Of a stretch of DNA of 32,000 nucleotides, positions 2,252 to 23,008 are shown in pieces. Position 1 is the first letter of the stretch. Each line of letters starts with the position of its first letter. This DNA is from Candidatus Saccharimonadota bacterium. GTDB lineage: Bacteria > Patescibacteriota > Saccharimonadia > Saccharimonadales > UBA4665. The notes beneath the pieces are model-generated. The model worked only from the letters and a program-made list of their open reading frames with translations. It had not been told where the DNA came from and made no database searches. The position numbers were made by a program, and so were the translations under genes. Where the stretch lies: the NCBI GenBank assembly GCA_016700375.1, contig CP065016.1, positions 720,001 to 752,000 of the forward strand, given 5' to 3'.

Positions 2252-2938
2252 CTATTGCAATAGATCTGCTAGCTGGACTTGGCCCAACCGGCTCAACTGC
2301 GCGGCATTTGCCAGATCGTAATCACCCACTTTTGTACGGCGTAGGCCTGACATATACGCGCCCGTTCCGAGCGCCTCACCAACATCTGCCACCAGTGAAC
2401 GAATATACGTGCCACTACTGACATCACAGGTAAACCGAACCAGAGGGTATGAATATTTCATGTTTCTTATTTCATATATAGTTACTGGGCGCGGTTCAAG
2501 CTTCACCTCCTTGCCCTTCCGAGCCAAGTCATAGGCTTTCTGACCATTGATCTTAATGGCTGAATAGATCGGCGGGGTTTGCATGATGTTCCCGGTGAAT
2601 TTCTTGAGTGCCGCTGTGACCTCGTTTTCACCCGGGATACGCGAATTAACAGGGGTCTTCTCCCCCTCATCATCACCCGTGGTGCTTGTTTGACCCAGCT
2701 TCATCGTGACCTCATACGTTTTGTCGTGTTTGCTTAGCTCAGCAGCACGGCGAGTGTACTCCTTGCCCACCAGTATGACGAGCAACCCCGTAGCCAGCGG
2801 GTCAAGTGTGCCCGTATGCCCTACTTTACAGTTTTTAGGTTTCTTGCCCTCGGCCTGCGCAACAATTTTGCGCACGTAATTCACCACATCAAAACTCGTC
2901 CACCCAGCGGGCTTGTCTATAAGGAGTAATCCCTGCAT
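2252..2938 (-). CDS. truB: tRNA pseudouridine(55) synthase TruB
   Basis: MQGLLLIDKPAGWTSFDVV..KVGHTGTLDPLATGLLVILVGK..TKxYE: the catalytic-Asp motif HTGTLDP and truB-rpsO-pnp synteny. Confidence 0.95.
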   Translation of the reverse strand: MQGLLLIDKPAGWTSFDVVNYVRKIVAQAEGKKPKNCKVGHTGTLDPLATGLLVILVGKEYTRRAAELSKHDKTYEVTMKLGQTSTTGDDEGEKTPVNSRIPGENEVTAALKKFTGNIMQTPPIYSAIKINGQKAYDLARKGKEVKLEPRPVTIYEIRNMKYSYPLVRFTCDVSSGTYIRSLVADVGEALGTGAYMSGLRRTKVGDYDLANAAQLSRLGQVQLADLLQ

Positions 2939-2965
2939 AACACTTAGCGTACCACGTTCCGCTGC

Positions 2966-4954: not shown

Positions 4955-5058
4955 ATTGTTTTTATTTGGCTACAGAAAGTCCGCATAAATGGTACCATAA
5001 GCGTAAAGAGCTGTCGAGTGTTTTTACCACTTTTTTGACGAAAGGATGTCTCTACTCC

Positions 5059-5087
5059 TTTACAACAGAGATGGTATGCGGTATAGT
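5059..5087 (+). promoter_or_regulatory. Sigma70-type promoter for rpsT: TTTACA-17 nt-TATAGT
   Basis: TTTACA 5059-5064, 17-nt spacer, TATAGT 5082-5087. A ~41-nt leader with AAGGA lies upstream of ATG 5129. Confidence 0.5.
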
Positions 5088-5128
5088 TGACACCGAGCAA
5101 ATACTAACTCTAGGTAAAAAGGAACTCT

Positions 5129-7301: not shown

Positions 7302-7568
7302 TTACCCATACAACTGGCTGTGTGTCCCTATAAAGCCAAAAACTACTACATTTGTGCCTTCGTAGTAGAACAATGCGAGAATGTCTCCGGTTACATTCAT
7401 GCTTAAGTAGCCCTTGTACTCAGCCTTCAGGGCATGCACCCGCAACGTAGGGTTATCTGGCCCAATAATCAGAAGTTTTATTCTCTGCTGAAAACGTGCT
7501 TGCACAGAAGACGGAAGCTTCTTGTACTGCTTTTTGAACCGAGGGTGATACTCGATACTCACAGTCAT
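7302..7568 (-). CDS. RelE/YafQ-family type II toxin (mRNA interferase)
   Basis: 88 aa; ..FKKQYKKL..HALKAEYKGYLSMNVTGDILALFYYE..FGFIGTHSQLYG resembles the YafQ/RelE C-terminal signature (GTH..LYG). ATGA overlap with the antitoxin. Confidence 0.8.
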   Translation of the reverse strand: MTVSIEYHPRFKKQYKKLPSSVQARFQQRIKLLIIGPDNPTLRVHALKAEYKGYLSMNVTGDILALFYYEGTNVVVFGFIGTHSQLYG

Positions 7569-7855
7569 TTCTCTAGGTCGGCTATAAATTCCTCGACTGT
7601 CTCGAACGGACCGATGGTCTTACCTTCTTTGCGCTCAGCTTCAATCTCGGCGATAATTTTTTCCATCTGCGGCGTGGCCACCTCGACCGCTGGAAAATAC
7701 ACTTGCCCGGTCAAAACCAACTGATGCATATACGCATTCAGCAAAGTCCCCAGCGGTATGCCATACTGCCCGGCCACCGCTTGTGCTTTTGCCTTCAGGT
7801 CTTTCTTCACCTTCACACTCATAACAGTTGTATCGGATGCTTTTGTAGTACTCAT
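7565..7855 (-). CDS. DinJ/RelB-family (RHH) antitoxin
   Basis: MSTTKASDTTVMSVKVKKDLKAKAQAVAGQYGIPLGTLLNAYMHQLVLTGQV.. matches the DinJ-type ribbon-helix-helix pattern. Start chosen at ATG 7855 because a full promoter sits directly upstream; the track ORF extends to 7951. Confidence 0.75.
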   Translation of the reverse strand: MSTTKASDTTVMSVKVKKDLKAKAQAVAGQYGIPLGTLLNAYMHQLVLTGQVYFPAVEVATPQMEKIIAEIEAERKEGKTIGPFETVEEFIADLEK

Positions 7856-7862
7856 ACTACCA

Positions 7863-7890
7863 AGTATATACTTTGTAGTTTCCCTGTCAA
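7863..7890 (-). promoter_or_regulatory. Promoter of the dinJ-like/relE-like operon: TTGACA-16 nt-TATACT, 7 nt from the ATG (leaderless geometry)
   Basis: Minus strand: TTGACA 7890-7885, TATACT 7868-7863, then TGGTAGT, then ATG 7855. Confidence 0.6.
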
Positions 7891-7916
7891 TCCCAGTCCA
7901 ATATAACTTACACGGC

Positions 7917-8993
7917 CTAGGCCGCTTCAGACTCCTTAGCTTCAAGTTCATTACGGTGTATCTTAGAGAATCTACGATGTTGAAGAACCTGCTGCTGAAT
8001 AGGTGTCAACATACCATTAACGGCATTTTCTCCCAGGTACTTGGCAACCACCCTATCTCTAATGTGAAGTTCCTCGTAAGCCTTACCCTCTATTGGGGAG
8101 ATTGACGCTACGAGGCCAGTAGGAGATTCAACAAGCAGAGCCTGCAAGTATCGTCGTACATTTGCCGCTTTTTGTTTGCGAAGAATTCCTAGGATTTCTT
8201 TAGCATTCGCTATGCCGCCATTTTCATCTGCGACTATCTCTTCCAGAAACCTGTCTCCACTAAGTACTTTTCTGCCTTCGACTTCTTGTGTGCAGTTGTT
8301 AAGCCGGGAACCTATTGTCTGCCTGTGATTTTCAATAAATTCCCTCAGGGCAGCATTTTTGTACAAACTATTTGCCACAATTCCACCTAAAGCATCTTCC
8401 CCTTCACCCGCAAATTGGAATTCCCAGTCAATATCATCTGGTTGATTACCTTTATATTCTTTTCGCGAAGGCAATCTTAAATTAACAGGAGAAACTTCCC
8501 ATCCACCTGCGCCACTTGACTGACCTACGATTCCAGAAATAGCGGCTTCATCTGTAGGGCCGCGAGCAATGAGAAAGGAACTTATGCGACTCGTTCTGCC
8601 GTTACCATCGATAAAAGGATGGGCAAGCAACACCCCCCCCGCTACCGCGAGCGCAGCTCGCTCAAGCGCATCCGCATCCGATAGGCTTCTGTCATGCAGG
8701 AATTCCCGAGCAACATCCCAAGTCTCATATAGGAGCGCCTGCTTCTCGCGCTGGTCAGGAACTTCATGTCCCATGAGTCCTACTTTTTCACCATCAAATG
8801 CTTGTCTTGCTTCGCTGTCTCCAGTACGCACAACTGATGCAGTCTGTTGAAGAAAGTCGATGAAGCCATCACCATTCATGTGTTCAAAATAATCACGCCG
8901 TAGAATTGGGTCGTTAAGAGCCTCATTCGAAGCCATGAATGCCGAGATTTCACCAACATTATTTGTACTGTGAGCGACTGCTTCTTGGGACAT
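7917..8993 (-). CDS. fic: Fic-domain protein (putative AMPylase / adenylyltransferase)
   Basis: Canonical Fic motif HPFIDGNGRTSR (nt 8586-8621). Start taken at ATG 8993 (MSQEAVAHS..) because the track's TTG start at 9041 lies inside the predicted promoter. Confidence 0.92.
   Translation of the reverse strand: MSQEAVAHSTNNVGEISAFMASNEALNDPILRRDYFEHMNGDGFIDFLQQTASVVRTGDSEARQAFDGEKVGLMGHEVPDQREKQALLYETWDVAREFLHDRSLSDADALERAALAVAGGVLLAHPFIDGNGRTSRISSFLIARGPTDEAAISGIVGQSSGAGGWEVSPVNLRLPSRKEYKGNQPDDIDWEFQFAGEGEDALGGIVANSLYKNAALREFIENHRQTIGSRLNNCTQEVEGRKVLSGDRFLEEIVADENGGIANAKEILGILRKQKAANVRRYLQALLVESPTGLVASISPIEGKAYEELHIRDRVVAKYLGENAVNGMLTPIQQQVLQHRRFSKIHRNELEAKESEAA
8633..8640 (-). repeat. G8 (C8 on the plus strand) homopolymeric tract inside fic
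   Basis: ccccccc c run at 8633-8640. It encodes ..A-G-G-V.. four codons upstream of the Fic-motif His codon (8619-8621). Confidence 0.9.
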
Positions 8994-9031
8994 ATGGACT
9001 AACCTTTTTTGTTTTTCATTGAACGATATAT

Positions 9032-9060
9032 ATCTTAGCAAAAAGCTTGTGATTTGTCAA
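9032..9060 (-). promoter_or_regulatory. Promoter of fic: TTGACA-17 nt-TAAGAT
   Basis: Minus strand: TTGACA 9060-9055, TAAGAT 9037-9032. A ~30-nt leader with AAAGG lies before ATG 8993. Confidence 0.5.
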
Positions 9061-9129: not shown

Positions 9130-11313
9130 ATGTACATGCCGAGAGTTGTGATTGTTTCCAACCGGCTGCCGGTGAGCGTGAAAAAGGTGGACGGCAAGCT
9201 AGAATTTTCCCCTTCGGCCGGAGGGCTAGCGACTGGTTTGTCTTCATACGCCACAACTGGCGCCAATCGCTGGATAGGCTGGCCCGGTATAGCTAGCGAC
9301 GACCTCACCGACGGCGAACGAAAGCATATTACGGTCGAGCTTCGCAAACACCATTGCTACCCTGTTTTCCTTACCCAAAAACAACTAGATGGTTTCTATA
9401 ACGGCTACAGCAACAGCGTGCTCTGGCCGCTCTTTCACCACATGAAAGTCGACGCAGGTGACACGCCCTCAAACTGGCGCTCATATAAAGAGGTAAATAA
9501 ACTATATGCCGAGGCCACTTTATCACTTAGTCGCGAAACTGACCGACTCTGGCTGCACGACTACCAGCTTATGCTACTCCCAGAAATGCTCCGTATTGCC
9601 CGCCCCAAAAGTCACATTGGCTTTTTCCTTCATATCCCCTTCCCTTCGAGCAATATATTTCTTGAGTCGAAGCACGCAGCCGAGCTGACAAAAGGACTTC
9701 TGGGCGCAGACCTTATTGGCATGCATACATCTGCTTATGTAGAAAACTTTCTGTCATGCAGTCGTGAACTGCAGATTGGGTTAGTAGCACCCAAAAAAGT
9801 AGTACTCCCGGAGCGCGTTGTACGCGTGACTGACCTTCCCATTGGCATCGATTACCGCAAGTTTGCCGATGCTAGCCGTTCGCTCGAAGTCACTATTGAA
9901 CACAAAAAGTTACTCTGGAAATACCTAGGGAAAAAAGTCATTCTTACTATAGACCGACTCGACCCATCAAAAGGCCTCCTAGGCAGGCTAAAGGCCTACC
10001 GCATGCTGCTTGCAGAAAATCCGAAACTTCGCGGTAAAGTAGTTATGGTCATGCAAGCCATGCCATCACGTACAGAAGTAGCCGCCTACCAGAAGCTCAG
10101 GGTCGATGTCGAAAAACTGGTTGAGCAAATTAACTCCCAGTTCGGTACGCGCCGTTGGCAACCGGTAGAAACTATTTTTTCACCGCTACCATTTGCACAG
10201 TATGCTGCCCTCTATCAACGCGCCGATGTTGCCTTCATTGCCCCTATACGCGATGGCATGAACCTCGTCGCCAAGGAATATTTGGCAAGTCACCCGAAAA
10301 GCGATGGCATACTCATTCTCAGCGAAACCGCTGGTGCTGCCGAAGAACTGAAAGATGCTGTACTGGTTAACCCCTACAAATTACGCAGCCTTGTCACCGG
10401 CTTAACCGACGCGCTCAACATGACCCCGAGTGGCTTTCTGCGTCGTACCCGCAAAATGCAACGTATACTGCGCCGAAATACCATAGACAAGTGGGCTGCT
10501 GGTTTTATTGACTTACTCGAGCATCCAATCCCAGTTCCAACCATTCGCATAACCCGTACGCTGAGCGAGTCGTTACAGCGTCATCTCAAAGCACAACATA
10601 AATACGCCCATAAAAGGTTATTCCTTTTTGATTATGATGGCACACTTCAACCTATAGTACAGAGACCAGAGCAGGCGAAGCCATCTAGTGAAACTATTGC
10701 ACTGCTCCGAAAGCTCGCAAAAAACCCAAAAAATCATGTCGTTGTCATTAGTGGGCGCGAAAAAAATAACCTCCACACATGGCTGGGTCATCTTCCAATC
10801 ACCCTGGTGGCGGAACATGGCGGATGGATTAGGTTCCATGACCATAAAAGCTGGAGGCAGACGACCCAGTCGTCTTTGTTATGGAAAGACGAGGTAGAAA
10901 AAATATTTAATCAGTATACTAAAAAAACGCCTGGCTCAATGACAGAGCAAAAAACTTATAGCATTGCTTGGCACTACCGGAATGCAACGCCATTTTCGGC
11001 ACAAAAAAATCTCATCGCACTAAAGCAACTTCTCAGACCACTCGCACAGAACCATGGGTTACGCATAAAAGACGGTAAAATGGTGCTAGAAGTTCACCCG
11101 CTAGATATTAGCAAAGGTCATGCTGTGCAAGAATGGCTTATAGGGTCAGAATATGATTTCGTTATGGCCATAGGCGATGACACCACCGACGAAGACATGT
11201 TTGCAGCGTTACCGCCTACCGCCTACACTATTAAAGTCGGCCGCGGCCGTACTCTGGCTAACTATCGCCTCCCAAACCCAACCACCGTCCACCAACTACT
11301 GCGAAAACTATAA
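9130..11313 (+). CDS. otsA/otsB: Bifunctional trehalose-6-phosphate synthase (GT20, OtsA-like) / trehalose-6-phosphate phosphatase (HAD, OtsB-like) fusion
   Basis: N-terminus: VVIVSNRLPVSV..GGLATGL.., GFFLHIPFPSSNIF..LLGADLIGMHT (OtsA). C-terminus: LFLFDYDGTL..VVVISGR..IGDDTTDEDMF (T6PP HAD motifs). One continuous 727-aa ORF; ATG 9136 is an alternative start. Confidence 0.92.
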   Translation: MYMPRVVIVSNRLPVSVKKVDGKLEFSPSAGGLATGLSSYATTGANRWIGWPGIASDDLTDGERKHITVELRKHHCYPVFLTQKQLDGFYNGYSNSVLWPLFHHMKVDAGDTPSNWRSYKEVNKLYAEATLSLSRETDRLWLHDYQLMLLPEMLRIARPKSHIGFFLHIPFPSSNIFLESKHAAELTKGLLGADLIGMHTSAYVENFLSCSRELQIGLVAPKKVVLPERVVRVTDLPIGIDYRKFADASRSLEVTIEHKKLLWKYLGKKVILTIDRLDPSKGLLGRLKAYRMLLAENPKLRGKVVMVMQAMPSRTEVAAYQKLRVDVEKLVEQINSQFGTRRWQPVETIFSPLPFAQYAALYQRADVAFIAPIRDGMNLVAKEYLASHPKSDGILILSETAGAAEELKDAVLVNPYKLRSLVTGLTDALNMTPSGFLRRTRKMQRILRRNTIDKWAAGFIDLLEHPIPVPTIRITRTLSESLQRHLKAQHKYAHKRLFLFDYDGTLQPIVQRPEQAKPSSETIALLRKLAKNPKNHVVVISGREKNNLHTWLGHLPITLVAEHGGWIRFHDHKSWRQTTQSSLLWKDEVEKIFNQYTKKTPGSMTEQKTYSIAWHYRNATPFSAQKNLIALKQLLRPLAQNHGLRIKDGKMVLEVHPLDISKGHAVQEWLIGSEYDFVMAIGDDTTDEDMFAALPPTAYTIKVGRGRTLANYRLPNPTTVHQLLRKL

Positions 11314-12180
11314 CGACTGACAAACTTCGCAAAAGTGGGTGCCGCGGGCGGCGACACGGATTTTGGTGATGGTTGTGCCGCAGCGCGGACAGGGCTGGCC
11401 GTCACGCCGGAACACATTCGCAAAGCTCAGGTAGCTCCCTTTTTTGCCTTCGGCATTCACATAGTTTTTGTCGGTACTGCCGCCCTTTTCTATGGAAAGC
11501 TTCATAACGGCTTTGATTTCAGATGCTAGGCAGTGGATACTTGCTGCGGATACGTTTTTAACGAGTGTTTTTGGGTGTATCTTCGCCGCCCACAGTGACT
11601 CATCTGCGTAAATATTCCCAACCCCAGCCAGTACGGTCTGGTCAAGAATAGCTGCTTTAATCGACGTATTTTTTCGCCGCTGCAGTCGCTGGTACAGCAC
11701 CTCACCCGTAAATGAACTTTCTAGCGGTTCGGGGCCAACTTTTTTCATAAAATCCATGTTTTGTATTTCGCTCGTAGGATACAGTTTCATCCAACCAAAT
11801 TTACGAAGGTCGTTAAAATACATACGGGTACCGTCGGTGAAGTCAATGTGCTCACGAGTGGTATTGTCTGGCAGTTCCCGCACAAAACTATCGTTTGGAT
11901 GCCCCGCTCCCCACCGCTCGTGATCACTCACTACAATAATCTGCCCTGTCATTTTCAAGTGACATGCTAGCGTATAACCACTTGAAAGCTCGATGAACAA
12001 CATCTTTGCCCTTCGCCACACTCGCGAGACTGTTGCCCCCACCAGAAACTGCTTAACATCCGCTGGTACGTTCGGAAAACTTTTTAGACTCCCGTAGTTA
12101 TGAACGCCGCATACGGTCTTTCCGACAAGCAGTGTCGTAAGCCCGCGGCGTATGGTTTCTACCTCTGGTAGCTCTGGCAT
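11308..12180 (-). CDS. mutM: Formamidopyrimidine-DNA glycosylase (Fpg/MutM)
   Basis: MPELPEVETIRRGL.. (catalytic N-terminal Pro) and a C-terminal zinc finger CPRCGTTITKIRVAARGTHFCEVCQ. Start set at ATG 12180, not the longer track ORF. Its 3' end overlaps the otsA/otsB 3' end by 6 nt. Confidence 0.95.
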   Translation of the reverse strand: MPELPEVETIRRGLTTLLVGKTVCGVHNYGSLKSFPNVPADVKQFLVGATVSRVWRRAKMLFIELSSGYTLACHLKMTGQIIVVSDHERWGAGHPNDSFVRELPDNTTREHIDFTDGTRMYFNDLRKFGWMKLYPTSEIQNMDFMKKVGPEPLESSFTGEVLYQRLQRRKNTSIKAAILDQTVLAGVGNIYADESLWAAKIHPKTLVKNVSAASIHCLASEIKAVMKLSIEKGGSTDKNYVNAEGKKGSYLSFANVFRRDGQPCPRCGTTITKIRVAARGTHFCEVCQSL

Positions 12181-12289
12181 GCTCCCATTGTACACCTCCC
12201 CAACCTCAAGATGTTTCAATAATCCGAACGTACAGTAAGCTTATTAGGATATTGCAGGCAACCTTGCCGTACTTGATACTTAACCATTA

Positions 12290-14349: not shown

Positions 14350-15474
14350 TTAACGCCATTCGCCTGTTACAGCAGGAGTTTGCGACGGGTTAATCCCCTC
14401 TACATGCCGCGTGCCGTTTTCTTCGTACCACTCGTAGTAGGTACCACACTTACTATCGTCAATACATATGGCGTTACTGCCCACTTTAATGTAGCCGTCA
14501 TTGCGATTCGCAAAATCGCTAATACTTTCACCATATATAGCACCAAACGTAAGCACACTAAAGAGCGCAATGGTCCATAATACGACGGTAGTAATGTTTA
14601 AGACACGGGAATCGTTATGGCCACTTTCTCGTTTCGGGTGACTCACACTGTCAAACAGCCGGTACAGCCAGAATAGTGGCAAAGCAAGTAGCACATATAC
14701 CGCCCCAAAAAATGCTATTTGTTTCCACGGTGTTATGACCGCCAACGTCCCACTCATCTTGAGCTCATCGAGTAGCGCCGCCCATACTCCCGCGACCAGA
14801 AAACCAGTCAACACCACAAGGCCAATGACTATCAGGACAATGGCAATATTTGCCACGACTTTCGCGATAGTGGTTATAACCGAACCAACCCGTGCAACAT
14901 TGTCCTTATCTGTAGCCACTTGCTTCATCTTACCAACGATTTCTTTCGCCGTATCGGGCCTCCCGTAGGCTGCCGCGACCTCTTCAGGCCTTTTGGCCTC
15001 TGGCATCGCAATAGCAAGTATCAAATACACGAGAATCATGAACCCTTGCGTAACAAAAGTAAGAACCACAAATAGTAGCCGCATAACGGTCACGTCTGTG
15101 CCAAAATAGGCTGCCAGCCCGGCACAAACGCCCGCAATCTTGCCATCTTTTGGCAAGCGGTAGAGTTTGCGTTGCTCTTGCTGCGTTGAAACTTCTACTT
15201 TCTCGTCGTCATAATCATCGGTTTCGTGAACAGGCCCAACCTTTTCCAAGATGTCTTGCACGACTCGTGCAGACACAACGTTTTTTCCACTCGTTAGCTC
15301 AGCATCGCACTTATCGGCAATAGCTTGCTCAATATCGTTCACAATATCTTCTTTATCGGGGTTATGAGCGAGTGTTTTCTCTGCTTTGTCCAGATAGGCC
15401 TTCAGGGCTTCATACCCTTCTTCTTCAACCTGATAGGCCCGCCCGTTCAAATTAATAGTAGTCACCTTTTTCAT
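14350..15474 (-). CDS. PspC-domain membrane protein with an N-terminal helical (HAAS/DUF1700-like) module
   Basis: PspC core: KLYRLPKDGKIAGVCAGLAAYFGTDVTVMRLLFVVLTFVTQGFMILVYLILAIAMPEA. N-terminus: ..YEALKAYLDKAEKTL..DIVNDIEQAIADK... Several further TM helices. 4-nt overlap with the upstream padR-family gene. Confidence 0.85.
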   Translation of the reverse strand: MKKVTTINLNGRAYQVEEEGYEALKAYLDKAEKTLAHNPDKEDIVNDIEQAIADKCDAELTSGKNVVSARVVQDILEKVGPVHETDDYDDEKVEVSTQQEQRKLYRLPKDGKIAGVCAGLAAYFGTDVTVMRLLFVVLTFVTQGFMILVYLILAIAMPEAKRPEEVAAAYGRPDTAKEIVGKMKQVATDKDNVARVGSVITTIAKVVANIAIVLIVIGLVVLTGFLVAGVWAALLDELKMSGTLAVITPWKQIAFFGAVYVLLALPLFWLYRLFDSVSHPKRESGHNDSRVLNITTVVLWTIALFSVLTFGAIYGESISDFANRNDGYIKVGSNAICIDDSKCGTYYEWYEENGTRHVEGINPSQTPAVTGEWR

Positions 15475-15845
15475 TGCTTGCCTCCTAGCTCCTCAAGGCT
15501 TTTATATAAATCGTTCCAGTACACGTGCAGCTCCGTCAGGCGCGCCTTGCCTGCTGGCGTTAGACTGTAATACTTACGTGGCGGACCAGCTTCGCTCTCT
15601 GCCCACTCATACGCCAGATATTCATCGCGTTTGAGTCTTGAAAGCAGCGGGTACAGTGTGCCCTCACTGGTGGCAAACGGCGTACTAAGCAACCGTTCAA
15701 GGATGTCTGCTGCGTATACCTTGCTCCGAGAAACTGTACTGAGCACAGCAAACTCAAGCAGCCCTTTGCGTAATGGGGCGAAACTGTCATCTATTTTTTC
15801 TTTGTCCGGCATGTTCAAAGCTACCTTTCTATACCAAGGTACCAT
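15471..15845 (-). CDS. PadR-family transcriptional regulator
   Basis: ..LLEFAVLSTVSRSKVYAADILERLL..SEGTLYPLLSRLKRDEYLAYEWAESEAGPPRKYYSLTPAGK is a textbook PadR wHTH. Start uncertain: ATG 15845 has TAATAT 6 nt upstream; ATG 15812 is the alternative. Confidence 0.85.
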   Translation of the reverse strand: MVPWYRKVALNMPDKEKIDDSFAPLRKGLLEFAVLSTVSRSKVYAADILERLLSTPFATSEGTLYPLLSRLKRDEYLAYEWAESEAGPPRKYYSLTPAGKARLTELHVYWNDLYKSLEELGGKQ

Positions 15846-15899: not shown

Positions 15900-16172
15900 T
15901 CAGTTTTTGCAGTAGCCACTGCCGCTGAGCACACTGTTTTTACATAAGTCGTCTTTTACATTCAGCGTGTTCACTGTTTTTTGCCGCAGGTCACTCACCT
16001 TTTGTTCGGTACTTTGCACGTACGTTACAACCTTAAAAACAAGGAGCCCGAGCATAAGCAGCGTGATAACGATAATGCTTCCGAACAAGCTAATCCAGAA
16101 ATTAATAATCTTTAGCTGGCGAGTAAGTTCACGCGCGAGTTTATCGTCTATGAGTGGTCGTTGCTGTTCCAT
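15900..16172 (-). CDS. Small hypothetical single-pass membrane protein
   Basis: MEQQRPLIDDKLARELTRQLKIINFWISLFGSIIVITLLMLGLLVF.. with C-terminal CKNSVLSGSGYC. It overlaps the 3' end of the upstream 308-aa gene. Start uncertain (16172 or 16238). Confidence 0.45.
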   Translation of the reverse strand: MEQQRPLIDDKLARELTRQLKIINFWISLFGSIIVITLLMLGLLVFKVVTYVQSTEQKVSDLRQKTVNTLNVKDDLCKNSVLSGSGYCKN

Positions 16173-17067
16173 ATGTGTCCAGTATAGCGCGGATTGCCTT
16201 TCCAAGCTCGGTAGTGTCAGTAAAACTAAACCCTGCAATTTCGCCGTACCGTTCCTTTTCTATTCGCCACAATATAACTTCGGTACGTTCACCGCCGTGG
16301 CCGTTCATTTCGCCTATGTAGCCCAGCATTTCCGCCGCTGTCACCTCCTCTGCGGTGAGTCTGCCCTCGCGCAGTAGGTCGTAAATACGATGACGGTAGG
16401 CACTTGGGGCTTTGCAGTCAATGTTTACGTATTTTCCGGTTGCTCGGTCCGTGATAATCATGTCAATCCCCAGGGCGTCGCTTGCCCGGCTGGTCATTGA
16501 TGCAGCAAAGCCTTCCTTTTGCACACCGCGGTACACAGCTATTTCGCGACTGAGCCCCTGCACAATAGCCTGGTACTGCTCGTCGCTAAAGGCCCGTACG
16601 CCGACTCTTTTGCAAAACCAGTCCATGAGCCGTTTCGCTTCGTCGCTAAACCCCGCCAACAGCGGTTCGTCGAGCGCCAGCACCGTCGAGACAAAGGCGT
16701 CATTAAAGTCTATAAGCTCGTACAAACGCTCCCCCCGACTATGGTACCCGTGGGGGTGCTTGTCCATTTGCCCCTGTGCCAATGCCGCCTGCGGCGCTTG
16801 CAGTACCAGTGCCCGCAGCCAGTGCCATGCCTTTGCACCACTCAGGTTTGCAGAAGACTCTATGTCATTAGCCTCTTTTTTGGCCTGTTCGATAAGTGGT
16901 TTCAAACGCTGCACATCGGGCTGCCCGCGCCAACGACGACTCGCTATGGGCACTTCGTTGCGCAAACTAACCTGCACATCTTCATACACCGTCCGCGCAC
17001 CCGAACTCTGCTTTCGCACCCTTCTCCCTGCCCGATAGTCCCCAAATTTCTGCCACACTGCGATCAC
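16141..17067 (-). CDS. Hypothetical 308-aa protein with a C-terminal PD-(D/E)xK nuclease-like motif arrangement
   Basis: ..SREIAVYRG..(E) ..ALGIDMIITD (D) ..GKYVNIDCK (DxK; nt 16411-16470). This is the E / hydrophobic-strand-D / (D/E)xK spacing typical of restriction-endonuclease-fold and NERD-like proteins. The GTG start overlaps the toxin stop (GTGA). Family not recognised. Confidence 0.5.
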   Translation of the reverse strand: MIAVWQKFGDYRAGRRVRKQSSGARTVYEDVQVSLRNEVPIASRRWRGQPDVQRLKPLIEQAKKEANDIESSANLSGAKAWHWLRALVLQAPQAALAQGQMDKHPHGYHSRGERLYELIDFNDAFVSTVLALDEPLLAGFSDEAKRLMDWFCKRVGVRAFSDEQYQAIVQGLSREIAVYRGVQKEGFAASMTSRASDALGIDMIITDRATGKYVNIDCKAPSAYRHRIYDLLREGRLTAEEVTAAEMLGYIGEMNGHGGERTEVILWRIEKERYGEIAGFSFTDTTELGKAIRAILDTYGTATTTHRR

Positions 17068-17336
17068 TCCCCGTACACCTGTGCATGTGTGCCGACATCC
17101 GTAAAAACATACGCTTCGTCTGTTTCGTAGTAAATAACCCTCACATCGCCACTAACCGAAAAAGCGCGAAACCCCAGCATACTCCCACCGAGCGCATGGT
17201 CAAATAAGGGAGCGCTGCGTTCACCGCTCTGCCATTGTGCAAAACGCAGACCAAAACGCTTTTTGAGTTTTTGGTCATGTACTATACGTTTTTTGTACGC
17301 TTTTATGAAACTTTTATCAAACTCAATCGGCTTCAT
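17064..17336 (-). CDS. RelE/YafQ-family type II toxin (paralogue of 7302..7568)
   Basis: MKPIEFDKSFIKAYKK..FDHALGGSMLGFRAFSVSGDVRVIYYE..FTDVGTHAQVYGE. Same architecture as the other toxin. ATGA overlap with the antitoxin. Confidence 0.75.
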   Translation of the reverse strand: MKPIEFDKSFIKAYKKRIVHDQKLKKRFGLRFAQWQSGERSAPLFDHALGGSMLGFRAFSVSGDVRVIYYETDEAYVFTDVGTHAQVYGE

Positions 17337-17635
17337 AGAGAGTTCAGGTACTCTAGAGCGTCGTCGGAGCTTGTAAAGCTTTTGACGACCCCCCTCGCTT
17401 TGTCTCTTTCATGTTCTACAGCATTTTGTCTCCACCGTTCGACGACATGCTGTGGAGGCGAACCCCAGCTGTCTTCTACTTCCCCAAAATCAACCCGGCG
17501 CCCGTCCACCAGCGCCCTTCCCACATATCGGAACATAGCCTGGATAGAATCAAACCCTAGGCTGCTCGCTTTTAAAGCAAGTTGACTGCGAAAGTTTTCA
17601 TCGACCGGTATAGTTATGCGTGATGTGCTATTCAT
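17333..17635 (-). CDS. RelB/DinJ-like (RHH) antitoxin
   Basis: MNSTSRITIPVDENFRSQLALKASSLGFDSIQAMFRYVGRALVDG.. plus an acidic C-terminal tail like the antitoxin at 7565..7855. Start at ATG 17635 is supported by the promoter directly upstream. Confidence 0.65.
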   Translation of the reverse strand: MNSTSRITIPVDENFRSQLALKASSLGFDSIQAMFRYVGRALVDGRRVDFGEVEDSWGSPPQHVVERWRQNAVEHERDKARGVVKSFTSSDDALEYLNSL

Positions 17636-17642
17636 AGCGATA

Positions 17643-17671
17643 ATGGTATCAAAATACATCTAGAATGTCAA
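17643..17671 (-). promoter_or_regulatory. Promoter TTGACA-17 nt-TACCAT, 7 nt from ATG 17635 (leaderless geometry)
   Basis: Minus strand: TTGACA 17671-17666, TACCAT 17648-17643. It is bracketed by a 10-bp inverted repeat GTATCAAAAT (17646-17655) / ATTTTGATAC (17692-17701). Confidence 0.5.
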
Positions 17672-17704
17672 CTAGGTGTCCTCTGCATGACATTTTGATA
17701 CACA

Positions 17705-18820
17705 TTACAAATAACCGAAAATGACTATGGCGGCAAAGAAAACTGCGATAAAAATGCTTTGCAGCAAGGCAAAACGCTCGTGCATGCCTTTTATGCCCCA
17801 AAATATTCCGAGTAACGTTGCCTGTATGGCTATTGCCAGCAGAGCAAGGTAGCCGCCCATTGTGCCCAAGTTTTCAAGCGCATGCAGCAGCAAAATAACA
17901 GGCATGATAACAACCATCGCCCATGAAATCGCAACGTGGACTCTCCCCTGCCACTTGCCTTCGTAGTGCGGGATTGCCGCCAGTAAAGCCAAACACGTTA
18001 TAGTCGCTCTAAGGGCATACCGCAGCGCAACACCGTAGTCATACTTCGGTATGAGCCAGCCCTCAAAATACACTGCTAGCAGCGCCGTTGCGATAAACAT
18101 GGCACCGCCGAAAACAAATGTTGTATCTCGCCGCGCGGAAGCATGCAGGCTAATTGACCAGTGTTTACCAAACGGCTCTCGCCGAAACACATACCCCAGC
18201 GCCGGTGCCATCACCACGGCACCCAGTAACAAATTTTCCCTAGGTAAAATAGCCAGGTGTGTATTCGCCAGATATGATTTATAGGCCACAAATCCCATCA
18301 TTAGCGAAGTGAGCACAAAAAAGACCATTTGCGCGAGCCAAAAATTAGCAAATCGAGTCAGGTAATTCCATATTGCAACCAAAAGAAGCGCAGCGAGGTA
18401 CCCGCTGACTAGCACCAAAGGAACATGCTCGTGAATGGCAAAAAGCAGACAAAACAACATATAGCCTGCCGCCATTGCCCATGCCAGTAGTTGGTGAGGG
18501 TCGTGAAGCTTAAAAGGACTATGATCGGTTCTTTGGTTTAGATGAACGACCTGCAAAATATCAAATACGGCCGCAGCTATAAGCACCCCAACGCTCATCC
18601 CTAGTGAGTCATAAGAACGTAAAGCAAAAGCAATAAAACACCCTGCTCCCAAAATGTGTATTATGCGATGACAGCGTAGCAGCTTCGTACTCACAACTGC
18701 AGACTCACTGATACTCGCATACGCTCCTGTTTTCAACTTTGCGGTATATAGCAAAATAGCATGCCATATGTTTACTCCAAAAAGTGGCAACATGAGAAAC
18801 AAACCTTCCATGAGAGTCAT
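17705..18820 (-). CDS. Hypothetical polytopic membrane protein (~10-12 TM helices)
   Basis: 371 aa, almost entirely hydrophobic helices. No family recognised. Confidence 0.65.
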   Translation of the reverse strand: MTLMEGLFLMLPLFGVNIWHAILLYTAKLKTGAYASISESAVVSTKLLRCHRIIHILGAGCFIAFALRSYDSLGMSVGVLIAAAVFDILQVVHLNQRTDHSPFKLHDPHQLLAWAMAAGYMLFCLLFAIHEHVPLVLVSGYLAALLLVAIWNYLTRFANFWLAQMVFFVLTSLMMGFVAYKSYLANTHLAILPRENLLLGAVVMAPALGYVFRREPFGKHWSISLHASARRDTTFVFGGAMFIATALLAVYFEGWLIPKYDYGVALRYALRATITCLALLAAIPHYEGKWQGRVHVAISWAMVVIMPVILLLHALENLGTMGGYLALLAIAIQATLLGIFWGIKGMHERFALLQSIFIAVFFAAIVIFGYL

Positions 18821-18870
18821 TCTAACCTAATCTCTCATGATGTTCATCTTCTCCTTACAACCAAACTCTG

Positions 18871-19536
18871 TTATCTGATTGCAATTTTCTTTGCAACAAG
18901 CTGTATGAGATCGTCTTTGTGAGTCGAAAGTATATCTCGCTCAAAACCAAACGCGAGTGCTTCTTTTACGTGGGTCAGTTCATCTATCACAAATCCGTGC
19001 CTTGTTAATACATCTGTTATCGAATCATCTGAGTGAAAATACCGGCGTGATGTGACAGTGGGGCGGTCGATAGTATGATACGTAGTCATGCATGTCGTTG
19101 AGTCGTACAGCGACTTGGGGTCTTTCGCTTCTAAGCAGTCCGTCGACCGAACAACGACAAATAGTTTACCGCCACCATGGACTACCCTGGCAATATTTTG
19201 CGCCGCTTTCTCTAGCTGCTGTTTTGGCAAATAGTGAAGAACCAGTCGAGCGTATATAAAATCAAATGTTTCGTCTGCATATGGAAGATCGCTTGCGATA
19301 TCCTCTAAACGTACCTCTACTTGGTCAGAAACGCCAGCGTTTTTCACTGCGTCTTGAGCCAGACCAACGCCCGACCTATCAATAGTCGTGGCAATGATAC
19401 GACGCTCAGATAACCGCTGCGCCATCTGTATTTCTGCTGCACCAGCCGTTGAGATGCCAACACTCAACACTGACTTATCAGCCTCTGTTAATAAACCTAG
19501 TCCATACTCTTCGGTTAGTGAATACAGCCTCTCCAT
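18871..19536 (-). CDS. Class I SAM-dependent methyltransferase-like protein
   Basis: ..VLSVGISTAGAAE (degenerate motif I), ..IIATTID (acidic motif II), ..FDFIYARLVLHYL.., ..GGGKLFVVV. The ATG lies 6 nt after the vapC stop with AAGAG upstream. Confidence 0.65.
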   Translation of the reverse strand: MERLYSLTEEYGLGLLTEADKSVLSVGISTAGAAEIQMAQRLSERRIIATTIDRSGVGLAQDAVKNAGVSDQVEVRLEDIASDLPYADETFDFIYARLVLHYLPKQQLEKAAQNIARVVHGGGKLFVVVRSTDCLEAKDPKSLYDSTTCMTTYHTIDRPTVTSRRYFHSDDSITDVLTRHGFVIDELTHVKEALAFGFERDILSTHKDDLIQLVAKKIAIR

Positions 19537-19542
19537 AACTCT

Positions 19543-19935
19543 TTATTCTACTAGTTCAACATTGGGTAATTGACGAGCAAGTTTTTTATCAAATGTAAGC
19601 AACGGTATAGCACCGTTCAGTTCAGCATGCACCGCTAGGCAACAGTCAACAAACGATAACGCAGTATGTTTTTCATACAGCGGCAATGCTCCGGAGAGTA
19701 CTGACCTATTGCAGTTTACATTTGCCTGCGCCATGATGGCGCGGAAATTGTTTGCTACCATGCTACGAGGCAGCCCCATTACCCTTTCCATGACGTATGC
19801 AATCTCTTCAAGTACCATGTCCGCGACATGCAAAATGTCTTTGCCAGACATAACCCTGTCCGTCAAAGCTTGTTGAGTGGGCACATCACCCAAAAGCCAG
19901 CGAAGCAAGAAGTTTGCATCGAGTGATTTTTGCAT
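19543..19935 (-). CDS. vapC: PIN-domain toxin VapC
   Basis: ..LDANFLLRWLLGD..VADMVLEEIAYVM..SFVDCCLAVHAELNGAIPLLTFDKKL. ATG 19935 is preferred; the track ORF uses GTG 19947, which overlaps the antitoxin. Confidence 0.8.
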   Translation of the reverse strand: MQKSLDANFLLRWLLGDVPTQQALTDRVMSGKDILHVADMVLEEIAYVMERVMGLPRSMVANNFRAIMAQANVNCNRSVLSGALPLYEKHTALSFVDCCLAVHAELNGAIPLLTFDKKLARQLPNVELVE

Positions 19936-19936
19936 A

Positions 19937-20212
19937 CTATGCTTCACCTAACGCATATTTTTGGCGATACTCAGCTATTTTAACAGCATCAATCTGCTCT
20001 TGCGTCGGCACCTGTACAATGTGCTGGCGCATGTATTCCCTATTTTCTGTTCGAACAGTCTCAATGCTCACAGGAGCTAAAATAGTCAATTGATTACCAT
20101 GCATACGTATTTCTACCCGCTTCCCGGGCTGTAGTTTCATGGCTGTCCGAAATGCTGCCGGCAAGGTAATCTGCCCCTTGCTTGTCATGGTAGATGTCGC
20201 ATATGTTTTCAT
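19937..20212 (-). CDS. vapB: AbrB/SpoVT-fold antitoxin (VapB/MazE type)
   Basis: ..TSKGQITLPAAFRTAMKLQPGKRVEIRMHGNQLTILAP is the swapped-hairpin AbrB motif. It lies directly upstream of the PIN toxin. Confidence 0.8.
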   Translation of the reverse strand: MKTYATSTMTSKGQITLPAAFRTAMKLQPGKRVEIRMHGNQLTILAPVSIETVRTENREYMRQHIVQVPTQEQIDAVKIAEYRQKYALGEA

Positions 20213-20219
20213 GGTAAGA

Positions 20220-20258
20220 AATATACCATACGTAATACTTTTTGTAAATGTATTACGT
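20220..20258 (-). promoter_or_regulatory. Promoter TTTACA-17 nt-TATATT, 7 nt from ATG 20212, overlapped by a 9-bp inverted repeat (operator and/or polA terminator hairpin)
   Basis: Minus strand: TTTACA 20248-20243, TATATT 20225-20220. Inverted repeat ACGTAATAC 20230-20238 / GTATTACGT 20250-20258. Confidence 0.55.
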
Positions 20259-20287
20259 TGGAATCAATATCGCGACACACCTAGGAG

Positions 20288-23008
20288 CTACAGTTCGCCC
20301 CAGTTGTCGCCTATGGAGGTGTCTACTGCAAGTTTTACAGGGAGATCCGGGTAAATGGCTTCCATGGTGGTTTTGAGTATGTCTGCCACTTTTTCAGCAT
20401 CTTGCTCGGCACATTCGACAAGGATAGAGTCATGTATCTGAAGCAGTTGCTGGGGCTTACTGGCGAACTGTGCAAGGTCAGACCTTCCAGGCTGCACTTT
20501 TTGAGAGGTCTGACCTTGCACAGTTCGCGCCTCAAACGCCCTTTCCACCGCCACCATTGCCAGTTTCATCAGGTCTGCTTCGGTGCCCTGAATAGGCATG
20601 TTCATTGCCGCGCGGGCGGCGGCTTGTCGCACAATGAAATTGCTCGAATGTATGTCTGGCATCGGGCGGCGGCGGCCCAGCAGTGTCTCGACGTAGCCAT
20701 CTTTTTTGGCCTGTTCCTTCAGGCCGTTTAGGTAGCCGAGGAGCGGCGCGCGTACCTTGAAATATTCGTCTATAAACGACTTAGCCTGTGTAAAATTCAT
20801 ACCTGTTGCAGCCGCCAGCCCGTGCGGGCTCATACCGTACAGCACACCAAAATTAATGGTTTTTGCCGCTGAACGCATCTGTTTGGTGACATCTTCGGGG
20901 CTTCGACCATACACTTCGGCCGCTGTGGTCAGGTGAATATCTGCGCCGCGATTAAACATACTCACCATCTCGCTATCGCCACTCATGGCTGCGGCAAGGC
21001 GTAGTTCAAACTGGCTGTAGTCGGCGCTCACGAACTTCCTGCCCTTGCCCGCCACAAACGCCGCCCGGATATGCTTGCCTAGTTCTGTGCGCACCGGTAT
21101 ATTTTGCAGGTTTGGGTCGGTGCTGCTGAGTCGGCCGGTCTGGGCAATGGTGAGGTTAAATGTGGTGTGCACACGGCCATGGCCGTCGACCAGTTTTGGC
21201 AGCGTATCAACATAGGTATTTTTTAGCTTCGTCACCTCACGGTACTGACTAATAAGGTCAATTATGGGGTGAGCTACGCGCAGTTTATCCAGCTCGCTTG
21301 CCGCTGTACTGTAGCCAGTCTTACCCTTTTTCACACCCGCTGTTGGCAACCCAAGTTTGTCAAAAAGTATAGTCGCAAGCTGCGCCGGACTGGCAATGTT
21401 AAACTCGGCATCAGCATGACCATAAATTTGTTGTTCAAGGTCGGAGATGCTGTCCTCGATTTGTTCAGAAAACTGTGCCAGGTACAATGTGTCGAGCTGA
21501 ATCCCCGCGTACTCCATACGTGCGAGTACCGGTATAACGGGCATATCGACAGTAGAATTTAGAATTTGGAATTTGGAATTTGCCTGAAATTCTTCGCGCT
21601 GTTTAGCGACTATGGCTCGTATTACGGCCACAATTTCAGCACCGCGACCAAGCAGTTCCTCGTCGCTCATATTTTCAAAAGATGAGCCGTCGTATCCGAG
21701 TACGTCAGCGGCAAGATCGGTCAATGTTTGCGCACGAATCAGGCTATTGAGCGTAAACGCCGCAACCAGTATATCGTGTGCGACTTCGGGCAGTTTCTCC
21801 ACCCCCATACCGAGCAGTGTCTTTAGGCTAGACTTCACGTCGTAGCCAATGAATCTTGAATCTTGAATTTTGAATTTTGAAAAGACTTTTGCAGCATCAA
21901 CTTTTGCTAGGTCAAACACATAAGTCAGCTTGTCGTCTGCCGATACTATGAGCACTTTCGGGTCACGCCCCGCTACTCCAGCCGAGCGCCCGTACACTAC
22001 CAGCTCCGCCCCATTTGGGATTTTTACAGAAGCCAGTTTCACCTCATCGTCGATGATACGGTTCTCTCCAACGGTAAATCCATGATTCGTAATGCCAGAT
22101 TCATGATGCTGCAAATCCACGTGTAAAATCTCGGGTAGCTGGCGGGCAAGGCTCCTAAATTCAAGCTTTTCGAGTAACTCAACAATCTTTACTGGGTTTG
22201 CACCCATATGTCCGTCCATCCGCTCGAGGTCGAGCGGCACGGGCGCATCCAACCACAGCGCGGCAAGTTTTTTACTCATGTAAGCGCTTTCTTTACCAGC
22301 TTCGAGCTTTTTGCGCACGCTGTCTTTCACCTGCCAGAGGTTTTCATACACGCCGTCCATGGTCTTGTAGTCCTGCAGCAGCTGTATAGCAGTTTTTTCA
22401 CCTATGCCCGGCACACCCGGGATGTTGTCTGAGCTGTCGCCTTTGAGCGCTTTGAGGTCAAGAAATTGTTCGGGCTCTATGCCGTATTTGGCCGTAAAAC
22501 TTTCTGGCGAATACAATTCTATGTCGCTTAAACCCTTTTTCAGCCGGTACATTTTGGTTAGCGGCCCGACGCACTGCAGCGCATCCATATCACTGGTAAT
22601 AAGCAGCGTTTCTATACCCTTTTTGCTCGCTTCGTGTGCGAGTGTGGCCATAATGTCATCTGCCTCGTAATCATCGAGTTCGTACAGCGGCCAGCCAAAC
22701 GCATCGAGAAGTTCGTGCAGCACCGGGATTTGTTCATAAAAGTCTGGTGGTGCTGGCTTGCGCCCTGCTTTGTACTCTGGGTATATGGCAAGCCGCGAGC
22801 GAATGTTCGTTTTTGGCTTGTCCCACGCCACCGCTACATAGTCTGGCTTGAGGCGACGAATGACCTCGAGCGCCATGGTTGCAAACCCAAACACGCCGCC
22901 CGTAGGCGTGCCGTCTTTGGTACTGAGGTTTGACATAGCGTAGTACCCACGGTAAAAGACCGACTTTCCGTCAATCACCGCCAACCGTTTCCTCTGCTCC
23001 TCAGCCAT
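20288..23008 (-). CDS. polA: DNA polymerase I (5' nuclease + exo-like + family A polymerase domains)
   Basis: 906 aa. N-terminal 5' nuclease (LAVIDGKS..YKAGR..GIGEKTA). Motif A DYSQFELRL, motif B RSAAKTINFGVLYG, motif C QIHDS. The ExoI DxE motif is absent (VVYGRSAG), so the proofreading domain is probably inactive. TATAAT (23021-23016) lies 7 nt upstream of the ATG. Confidence 0.98.
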   Translation of the reverse strand: MAEEQRKRLAVIDGKSVFYRGYYAMSNLSTKDGTPTGGVFGFATMALEVIRRLKPDYVAVAWDKPKTNIRSRLAIYPEYKAGRKPAPPDFYEQIPVLHELLDAFGWPLYELDDYEADDIMATLAHEASKKGIETLLITSDMDALQCVGPLTKMYRLKKGLSDIELYSPESFTAKYGIEPEQFLDLKALKGDSSDNIPGVPGIGEKTAIQLLQDYKTMDGVYENLWQVKDSVRKKLEAGKESAYMSKKLAALWLDAPVPLDLERMDGHMGANPVKIVELLEKLEFRSLARQLPEILHVDLQHHESGITNHGFTVGENRIIDDEVKLASVKIPNGAELVVYGRSAGVAGRDPKVLIVSADDKLTYVFDLAKVDAAKVFSKFKIQDSRFIGYDVKSSLKTLLGMGVEKLPEVAHDILVAAFTLNSLIRAQTLTDLAADVLGYDGSSFENMSDEELLGRGAEIVAVIRAIVAKQREEFQANSKFQILNSTVDMPVIPVLARMEYAGIQLDTLYLAQFSEQIEDSISDLEQQIYGHADAEFNIASPAQLATILFDKLGLPTAGVKKGKTGYSTAASELDKLRVAHPIIDLISQYREVTKLKNTYVDTLPKLVDGHGRVHTTFNLTIAQTGRLSSTDPNLQNIPVRTELGKHIRAAFVAGKGRKFVSADYSQFELRLAAAMSGDSEMVSMFNRGADIHLTTAAEVYGRSPEDVTKQMRSAAKTINFGVLYGMSPHGLAAATGMNFTQAKSFIDEYFKVRAPLLGYLNGLKEQAKKDGYVETLLGRRRPMPDIHSSNFIVRQAAARAAMNMPIQGTEADLMKLAMVAVERAFEARTVQGQTSQKVQPGRSDLAQFASKPQQLLQIHDSILVECAEQDAEKVADILKTTMEAIYPDLPVKLAVDTSIGDNWGEL
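20463..20528. repeat. 66-nt palindromic element (perfect 22-bp arms, 22-nt loop) in frame within polA
   Basis: GCGAACTGTGCAAGGTCAGACC (20463-20484) and its exact reverse complement GGTCTGACCTTGCACAGTTCGC (20507-20528). The element encodes ..RTVQGQTSQKVQPGRSDLAQFA... It also produces the mirrored peptides seen in track ORFs 20335..20535(-) and 20402..20731(+). Confidence 0.95.
21554..21581 (+). repeat. Heptanucleotide tandem array B: AGAATTT AGAATTT GGAATTT GGAATTT (inside polA, antisense to it)
   Basis: Four perfect-phase 7-mers, followed by GCCTG AAATTC, which can pair with the last unit. Encodes ANSKFQILNS in polA. Confidence 0.9.
21851..21885 (+). repeat. Heptanucleotide tandem array C: GAATCTT GAATCTT GAATTTT GAATTTT (GAAAAGA) (inside polA, antisense to it)
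   Basis: Same 2+2 organisation as array B, starting 297 nt (99 codons) away. Encodes SKFKIQDSRF in polA. Confidence 0.9.

Follow-up and report, generated by a model that had tools for sequence, protein, structure and literature searches.

A YafQ-type toxin–antitoxin pair abutting a conserved, putative PD-(D/E)xK nuclease gene near polA in Saccharibacteria

On the minus strand of a 32,000-nucleotide (nt) stretch of a Candidatus Saccharimonadota bacterium genome (assembly GCA_016700375.1, contig CP065016.1, positions 720,001 to 752,000 of the forward strand; hereafter the window, numbered from its first letter), four short genes follow one another with overlapping ends. Genes 1 and 2 form a toxin–antitoxin (TA) pair, gene 3 encodes a protein of 308 amino acids (aa) and gene 4 a small membrane protein. 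Is this a single device, in which an RNA-targeting toxin is hard-wired to a nuclease and a membrane component, as an earlier note on this DNA proposed, or have two independent units come to lie side by side? The comparison of the locus with its counterparts in other species makes the second answer very probable: a mobile TA module abuts the conserved genes 3 and 4, to which it is unrelated. The arrangement is read as a juxtaposition since genes 3 and 4 are free of a TA neighbour in 77 of 80 species and since the pair is found without gene 3 beside it.

Gene 3 and the TA pair across Saccharibacteria

The alignment of gene 3 homologues was scanned against one genome per species (GTDB representatives), which gave 80 loci, nearly all of them labelled Saccharibacteria or Patescibacteria, and the neighbours were detected by tblastn of the window proteins against these loci. 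In 66 of the 80, polA is found ahead of gene 3 and in the same orientation (upstream sequence of 3 kb or more is available in only 68), and gene 3 is followed by HAD hydrolase genes in 56 and by fpg in 36. Gene 4 often, not always, accompanies gene 3: it adjoins it downstream in 23 loci, distant lineages with 40–52% gene 3 identity included. The open reading frame (ORF) immediately upstream of gene 3 was taken from 75 loci and scanned against Pfam, which returned NUDIX (12 loci), polA (10), HAD (10), dUTPase (7), dCMP deaminase (3) and PIN (1). The window backbone is composed of polA, gene 3, gene 4, PadR, PspC, a 195-aa membrane protein gene, two HAD genes, fpg and holA. Judged by this gene order, genes 3 and 4 belong to the chromosome backbone that Saccharibacteria conserve.

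Homologues of genes 1 and 2 stand ahead of gene 3 in three loci only (L004, L005 and L014). L004 and L005 are 96–97% identical to the window, and the identities of L014 amount to 80% for gene 3, 63% for gene 1 and 58% for gene 2. The pair is absent from L006–L013 and L017, in which gene 3 is 71–84% identical to that of the window. It is also absent from the closest complete genome, CP064992.1 (gene 3 84% identical), where the order is a membrane gene, 22 nt, gene 3, gene 4, PadR and PspC. The question whether homologues of the 308-aa protein always follow a RelBE-type pair is therefore answered in the negative by the 77 TA-free species-level loci. In the same complete genome (L001/L006), polA (2364–5096) is split into several ORF calls, probably by assembly frameshift errors and not as a pseudogene. 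Its gene 3 is preceded by TGgTAGAAT, 7 nt and the ATG, with no Shine-Dalgarno sequence (L006, 5975–6003); the element resembles an extended −10 promoter from which gene 3 would be transcribed without a leader, and such starts may be frequent in these genomes.

The pair was also found away from gene 3. In L084 it comes directly after polA, and a VapBC pair, a methyltransferase gene and other genes precede gene 3, which lies some 4 kb beyond; in L086 the pair resides inside a type IV pilus gene cluster. A 56-aa T2SSF fragment (L086, 4565–4735) stands beside it there, which suggests that the pilus platform gene may have been broken by the insertion or by some event linked with it. Wherever the context was examined (L014, L084–L086), the gene 1 homologue is followed by a gene for a YafQ-like toxin, and this gene, encoding 90 aa and matching YafQ_toxin, was seen in three distinct neighbourhoods (L014, L084/L085 and L086). 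The DNA of the pair gave no match to plasmids, repeats around it, sought as an insertion scar, were only short and at chance level, and its GC content is not distinct from that of the flanks.

The stretch from polA to gene 3, in which the pair lies, is itself variable. Its length ranges from about 0 to more than 4 kb between species (equivalents in L004–L084), and in several of them (L031, L065, L067) the polA stop and the gene 3 start are a few bases apart at most. Its contents vary as well and include genes for NUDIX, HAD, dUTPase, dCMP deaminase, methyltransferase and membrane proteins and TA pairs. In the window it holds a VapBC pair, a methyltransferase gene, a membrane protein gene and the YafQ-type pair, and homologues of the accessory genes come and go within the interval of the relatives. 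The interval is thus a recurrent landing site for TA pairs and accessory genes, and caution is advisable when 'operons' are interpreted there.

Two of the window's tenants of this interval deserve a description. In the VapBC pair a MazE/AbrB antitoxin gene (91 aa, PF04014, E = 3e-9) overlaps that of a PIN toxin (134 aa, PF01850, E = 1e-9), and homologues occupy the equivalent interval in L005, L007, L011, L016, L024, L063 and L084. The 371-aa multi-pass membrane protein encoded just upstream of the YafQ-type pair belongs to no Pfam family, and most relatives have there only a homologue of part of it, of about 175 aa (L006, L007, L009). An origin by internal duplication was considered for this protein and rejected, the two halves being dissimilar (E = 0.3).

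The events at the locus may be pictured as follows. A self-contained type II TA module with a promoter of its own would have inserted into the variable interval, flush with the 5′ end of gene 3, and genes 3 and 4 would then, probably, have been read through from the TA promoter in this lineage. Such read-through is considered incidental, since both genes exist without a TA promoter in 77 of the 80 species. By analogy with the DinJ-YafQ and RelBE families, the toxin would cleave translated mRNA on the ribosome, and the labile antitoxin would bind and neutralise it and would repress its own promoter, probably through an N-terminal ribbon-helix-helix. The second unit would run from polA through gene 3, with gene 4 and PadR–PspC as optional members, to a membrane protein gene, two HAD genes and fpg (the coordinates are collected in Table 1), and gene 3 would provide a metal-dependent PD-(D/E)xK nuclease whose helical N-terminal domain is specific to the lineage.

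Table 1. Position of the genes and sites discussed, in window coordinates.
Feature	Coordinates	Strand	Description
Gene 1 (antitoxin)	17333–17635	minus	100 aa from ATG 17635; 4-nt overlap with the toxin gene; ORF listed as 17333–17659
Gene 2 (YafQ/RelE-family toxin)	17064–17336	minus	90 aa
Gene 3	16141–17067	minus	GTG start, 308 aa; helical N-terminal domain (~25–185) and PD-(D/E)xK-like core (~160–300)
Gene 4	15900–16172 (ATG) or 15900–16238 (TTG)	minus	90 aa from ATG; one hydrophobic segment; conserved motifs RQLKIxNFWIT-FG and LNVKDDxC...YC
Promoter-like site	17643–17671	minus	TTGACA-17-TACCAT; agrees at 10 of 12 positions; the −10 hexamer is preceded by TG
Inverted repeat	17646–17655 and 17692–17701		GTATCAAAAT / ATTTTGATAC; perfect, 10 bp, 36 nt apart; brackets the −35 hexamer and overlaps the extended −10
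polA-to-gene-3 interval	17068–20287		variable between species
371-aa membrane protein gene	17705–18820	minus	multi-pass
VapBC pair	19543–20212	minus	MazE/AbrB antitoxin and PIN toxin
polA	20288–23008
PadR	15471–15845
PspC	14350–15474
fpg	11308–12219
Fic-domain gene	7917–9041
Antitoxin of the third TA pair	7565–7951	minus	weak RelB-like
Toxin of the third TA pair	7302–7568	minus	YafQ/ParE-like
holA	6372–7292

Gene 3, a putative nuclease, and gene 4

What is the conserved gene that the pair abuts? The 308-aa protein had been described as one without a recognised family, and this proved correct, as no Pfam, NCBIfam, PHROG or PADLOC family matched it. Its 399 homologues are nearly all about 300 aa long, none contains a Pfam domain, and all that carry a source name come from Saccharibacteria or Patescibacteria. 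Viral contigs and phage genomes yielded no match to gene 3, and when a profile of the combined close and distant family was used to seek annotated remote relatives, the top 120 matches all belonged to the same unannotated family. Translation might also start at an in-frame GTG at 17058, which has GGGGAG 8 nt upstream and would leave a 5-nt gap after the gene 2 stop instead of the 4-nt overlap. The gene is a GC-richer segment (about 56%, as against about 45–50% in its surroundings).

The earlier note had pointed to an E...D...DxK arrangement in the C-terminal half, and here the evidence is consistent. In 45 homologues E175, D202, D217 and K219 never vary; if a sister family with about 20% identity is included, the three acidic residues still do not vary and K219 is conserved in more than 90%. 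AlphaFold modelled the full-length protein with a mean predicted local distance difference test score (pLDDT) of 88.3 and a predicted template modelling score (pTM) of 0.85, and residues 160–308 alone with a pLDDT of 92.6. The C-terminal elements of the model are helix 162–184, strands 188–191, 203–206 and 212–219, helices 221–233 and 239–248, and strands 250–255 and 262–268, that is, a topology of alpha(E175)-beta-beta(D202)-beta(D217-x-K219)-alpha-alpha-beta-beta. The first helix bears E175, D202 stands where strand 2 begins, and strand 3 carries D217-x-K219, which gives the canonical PD-(D/E)xK arrangement and a restriction-endonuclease-like topology. The best PDB match of the isolated domain in Foldseek was the nuclease subunit of SPARDA (9qcc, E = 0.011, probability 0.87–0.97), followed by weak fold matches to Hjc resolvase, R2 endonuclease, VRR-NUC, DdmDE and phage PD-(D/E)xK proteins, and the Pfam model Mrr_cat_2 aligned to residues 193–220 (E = 0.012, 15.9 bits, with a cut-off of 22).

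Gene 3 therefore resembles the PD-(D/E)xK nucleases (SPARDA subunit, archaeal Hjc, VRR-NUC, Mrr) in its alpha-beta-beta-beta-alpha-beta core and in the placing of its conserved Glu (first helix), Asp (start of strand 2) and D-x-K (strand 3). It differs from them in that its best scores are insignificant, in that it carries a helical N-terminal domain of about 160 aa with invariant motifs of its own, in its confinement to Saccharibacteria and close relatives, and in its fixed place near polA and not among restriction-modification or defence genes. The narrower assignment to the NERD-like nucleases did not hold: gene 3 shares with NERD proteins the general restriction-endonuclease-like motif pattern, yet hmmscan gave no Pfam NERD match even at E = 0.1.

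One may ask if the likeness is fortuitous, or if the core binds nucleic acid or performs some other hydrolysis while the N-terminal half is the functional one. Every fold and profile match stays under significance: no Foldseek match reached E ≤ 0.001, no Pfam match reached its cut-off, and the gene 3 alignment profile retrieved nothing among the PDB sequences. These results count against a nuclease, as does the fact that within Saccharibacteria the N-terminal motifs QAPxAAxAQxQMDKHPHGYH and ELIDFNDAF are conserved at least as well as the C-terminal core. On the other hand, the putative catalytic residues persist in the sister family, where most of the N-terminal motifs are lost, the order of secondary-structure elements is exactly that of the canonical core, and the weak matches are repeatedly bona fide PD-(D/E)xK nucleases. 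A gene 3 product that is no nuclease is, on balance, unlikely. A PD-(D/E)xK nuclease fold is very likely, and nuclease activity somewhat less so; the protein would probably be a Mg-dependent nuclease.

Our best guess is that this nuclease would probably act on DNA in repair or recombination, which is suggested by the fold, by the acidic/lysine signature and by the repair and nucleotide-sanitising neighbours, although the argument for a repair role is one of guilt by association. Saccharibacteria have reduced genomes with few recognisable repair nucleases. The gene 3 family, in its fixed slot by polA among nucleotide-sanitising and base-excision-repair genes (NUDIX, dUTPase, dCMP deaminase, HAD, fpg, holA), could reasonably be an enzyme of repair or recombination peculiar to this lineage. 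It probably belongs to the PD-(D/E)xK superfamily as a member not yet described; its N-terminal domain is novel, it is conserved across a phylum-level lineage, and it is the part of the locus worth following.

The sister family is exemplified by a gene of L087 (5001–5963), about 20% identical to gene 3, which keeps E175, D197, G200, D202 and D217. Its slot reads polA-NUDIX-dUTPase-HAD-[gene]-small ORF-fpg-holA, and the polA and fpg of L087 are 49% and 59% identical to their window counterparts. Since neighbours are 49–59% identical and the gene itself about 20%, the sister is taken as a positional orthologue that has diverged fast; gene 3 therefore appears to evolve far faster than its neighbours in some lineages. 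The small ORF downstream in L087 encodes a Cys-rich protein of 73 aa that is not membrane-spanning and is unrelated to gene 4.

The description of the gene 4 product as a single-pass membrane protein of about 90 aa with a C-terminal Cys pair was borne out, and the Cys pair is conserved (LNVKDDxC...YC). The ATG at 16172 is favoured as its start, for the homologues begin with MEQQRPL. Searches of Pfam, NCBIfam, PADLOC and PHROGs found no family for it.

The TA pair, its promoter and its tie to gene 3

Gene 2 was said to encode a RelE/YafQ-like toxin, and Pfam agrees: residues 4–87 align to positions 3–86 of the 88 of the YafQ_toxin model (PF15738) with 34 bits, above the curated cut-off of 30 (E = 3.7e-8). 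A PHROG RelE-like toxin also matches (E = 3e-5), and the scores against NCBIfam TIGR00053 and TIGR02385 are under their cut-offs. On these matches gene 2 is a type II toxin of the YafQ/RelE family and is predicted to be a ribosome-dependent mRNA endonuclease. Its GTHAxxYG-type C-terminus resembles that of E. coli YafQ, a likeness which serves as a lead only.

Gene 1 is the antitoxin of gene 2 and comes from a rare, unannotated family. Among 5.8 billion proteins only 5 homologues were found, and no Pfam, NCBIfam, PADLOC or PHROG family was detected. The first in-frame ATG (17659) would give 108 aa but sits inside the promoter spacer, and the homologues conserve only the N-terminus that begins at ATG 17635 (M-x-x-T-x-RITIPVD), so the latter is most likely the true start, with a product of 100 aa. 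That this antitoxin is of the ribbon-helix-helix type, as had also been stated, is a different matter. The pattern of RITIPVD followed by two helices makes an N-terminal ribbon-helix-helix plausible; RHH_1 gave weak matches in 2 of the 6 family members (E = 0.043), and the antitoxin alignment profile met only noise in the PDB (CdiA, E ~0.45). The assignment of the fold depends on those weak RHH_1 matches. A literature search on Saccharibacteria and toxin–antitoxin brought nothing bearing on this locus.

The promoter reported ahead of gene 1 (TTGACA-17-TACCAT) is present and is the top-scoring of 6 promoter-like sites in 2.6 kb, where shuffled sequence has a mean of 2.4. ATG 17635 comes 7 nt past the −10 hexamer and lacks a Shine-Dalgarno sequence, which makes the 'leaderless-type' label plausible; the promoter is probably a strong one of this type, with the predicted transcript start at or near the gene 1 ATG. 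The orthologous pair of L014 has the matching layout TTGACA-17-TACAAT, 6 nt, ATG, and the promoter thus accompanies the pair. The inverted repeat of Table 1 is a candidate operator for the antitoxin, although at chance level (about 0.5 such repeats expected per 1 kb, by our estimate) and not evident at the L014 pair, so that it is a lead only.

The gene boundaries had been given correctly. Genes 1 and 2 overlap by the 4 nt of ATGA (17333–17336), genes 2 and 3 by GTGA (17064–17067), and genes 3 and 4, if the ATG of gene 4 is taken, by 32 nt (16141–16172). Short start/stop overlaps are frequent in bacterial operons and unremarkable alone. No terminator-like site was found between gene 2 and gene 3, which makes co-transcription of the four genes in this genome likely; neither Rfam families nor tRNAs were detected by scans of the complete window.

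The pair belongs to a well-known kind, and its antitoxin comes from an unannotated family. Like DinJ-YafQ and RelB-RelE of E. coli, it consists of two small genes with a 4-nt overlap and the antitoxin first, its toxin matches YafQ_toxin over the full length, and its promoter, with a candidate inverted-repeat operator, lies directly upstream. Unlike them, it has an antitoxin of a rare family (5 homologues) with a faint RHH_1 likeness and no Pfam or NCBIfam model, a probably leaderless transcript, and a toxin under the NCBIfam cut-offs. TA operons with a co-transcribed extra gene exist in E. coli, namely mazEF-mazG and relBE-relF(hokD), and the extra gene of relBEF encodes a small membrane protein. 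The window resembles them insofar as the TA promoter probably reads into genes outside the core pair. It differs in that the genes downstream are kept TA-free in 77 of 80 species and the pair occurs elsewhere without genes 3 and 4; moreover, gene 4 has no Hok-type similarity in Pfam or NCBIfam.

Could the read-through nevertheless have acquired a function? In a lineage-specific co-option, the TA module would have become a regulator of genes 3 and 4 in a small clade, and degradation of the antitoxin under stress would de-repress the promoter, so that expression of genes 3 and 4 would rise along with that of the toxin. The tight junctions without an intervening terminator speak for this, and so does the adjacency in three species-level genomes, including L014 with its diverged pair. 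Furthermore, the TGgTAGAAT element which we read as the extended −10 of gene 3 in relatives is missing in the window, so that on this account expression of gene 3 here must come from upstream. But the pair is absent in L006–L013 and L017, whose gene 3 is as close to that of the window as L014's, or closer; it is stand-alone elsewhere (L084, L086); and the changed regulation may be incidental rather than adaptive. Co-option is for these reasons regarded as improbable. A shade less probable still is the stronger version, in which a mobile YafQ-type module was domesticated as the stress-responsive regulator of the nuclease and its membrane partner and the flush junctions were kept by selection; if it were true, toxin activation and nuclease induction would be coupled.

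The juxtaposition reading has its own weak points. The pair is flush with gene 3 also in L014 (junction TAActATG), although genes 1 and 2 are diverged there, which means that the adjacency was long kept or that one site was hit twice, and this leaves some room for a functional link. A flush junction in two diverged lineages, with L006–L013 devoid of the pair, needs either repeated loss or repeated insertion. Moreover, the co-transcription is deduced from spacing. Even so, a toxin hard-wired to a nuclease and a membrane protein as one module does not agree with a co-occurrence in 3 of 80 loci and a pair that occurs elsewhere.

Abortive infection or defence by a system of four components, in which an RNA-cleaving toxin and a nuclease would be the effectors beside a membrane component, draws on the tight packing and the nuclease-like fold and nothing more. 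It is highly improbable and already largely refuted by the gene-neighbourhood analysis. Against it, none of the four proteins matched a PADLOC-DB family at E ≤ 0.1; gene 3 is nearly universal and syntenic, a backbone gene by polA and not an island gene; the components are together in 3 of 80 loci; neither the phage nor the viral collections contain gene 3; and the TA DNA has no plasmid match. The locus holds no new defence or TA architecture.

The third TA pair of the window

The window contains a further TA pair directly downstream of the Fic-domain gene and upstream of holA, which is composed of a YafQ/ParE-like toxin and a weak RelB-like antitoxin. The earlier note took this pair (7302–7855 there) as a paralogue of genes 1 and 2, and this is half true: the antitoxins of the two pairs show no detectable kinship (E = 22), whereas the toxins are related, with 34% identity (E = 1e-13).

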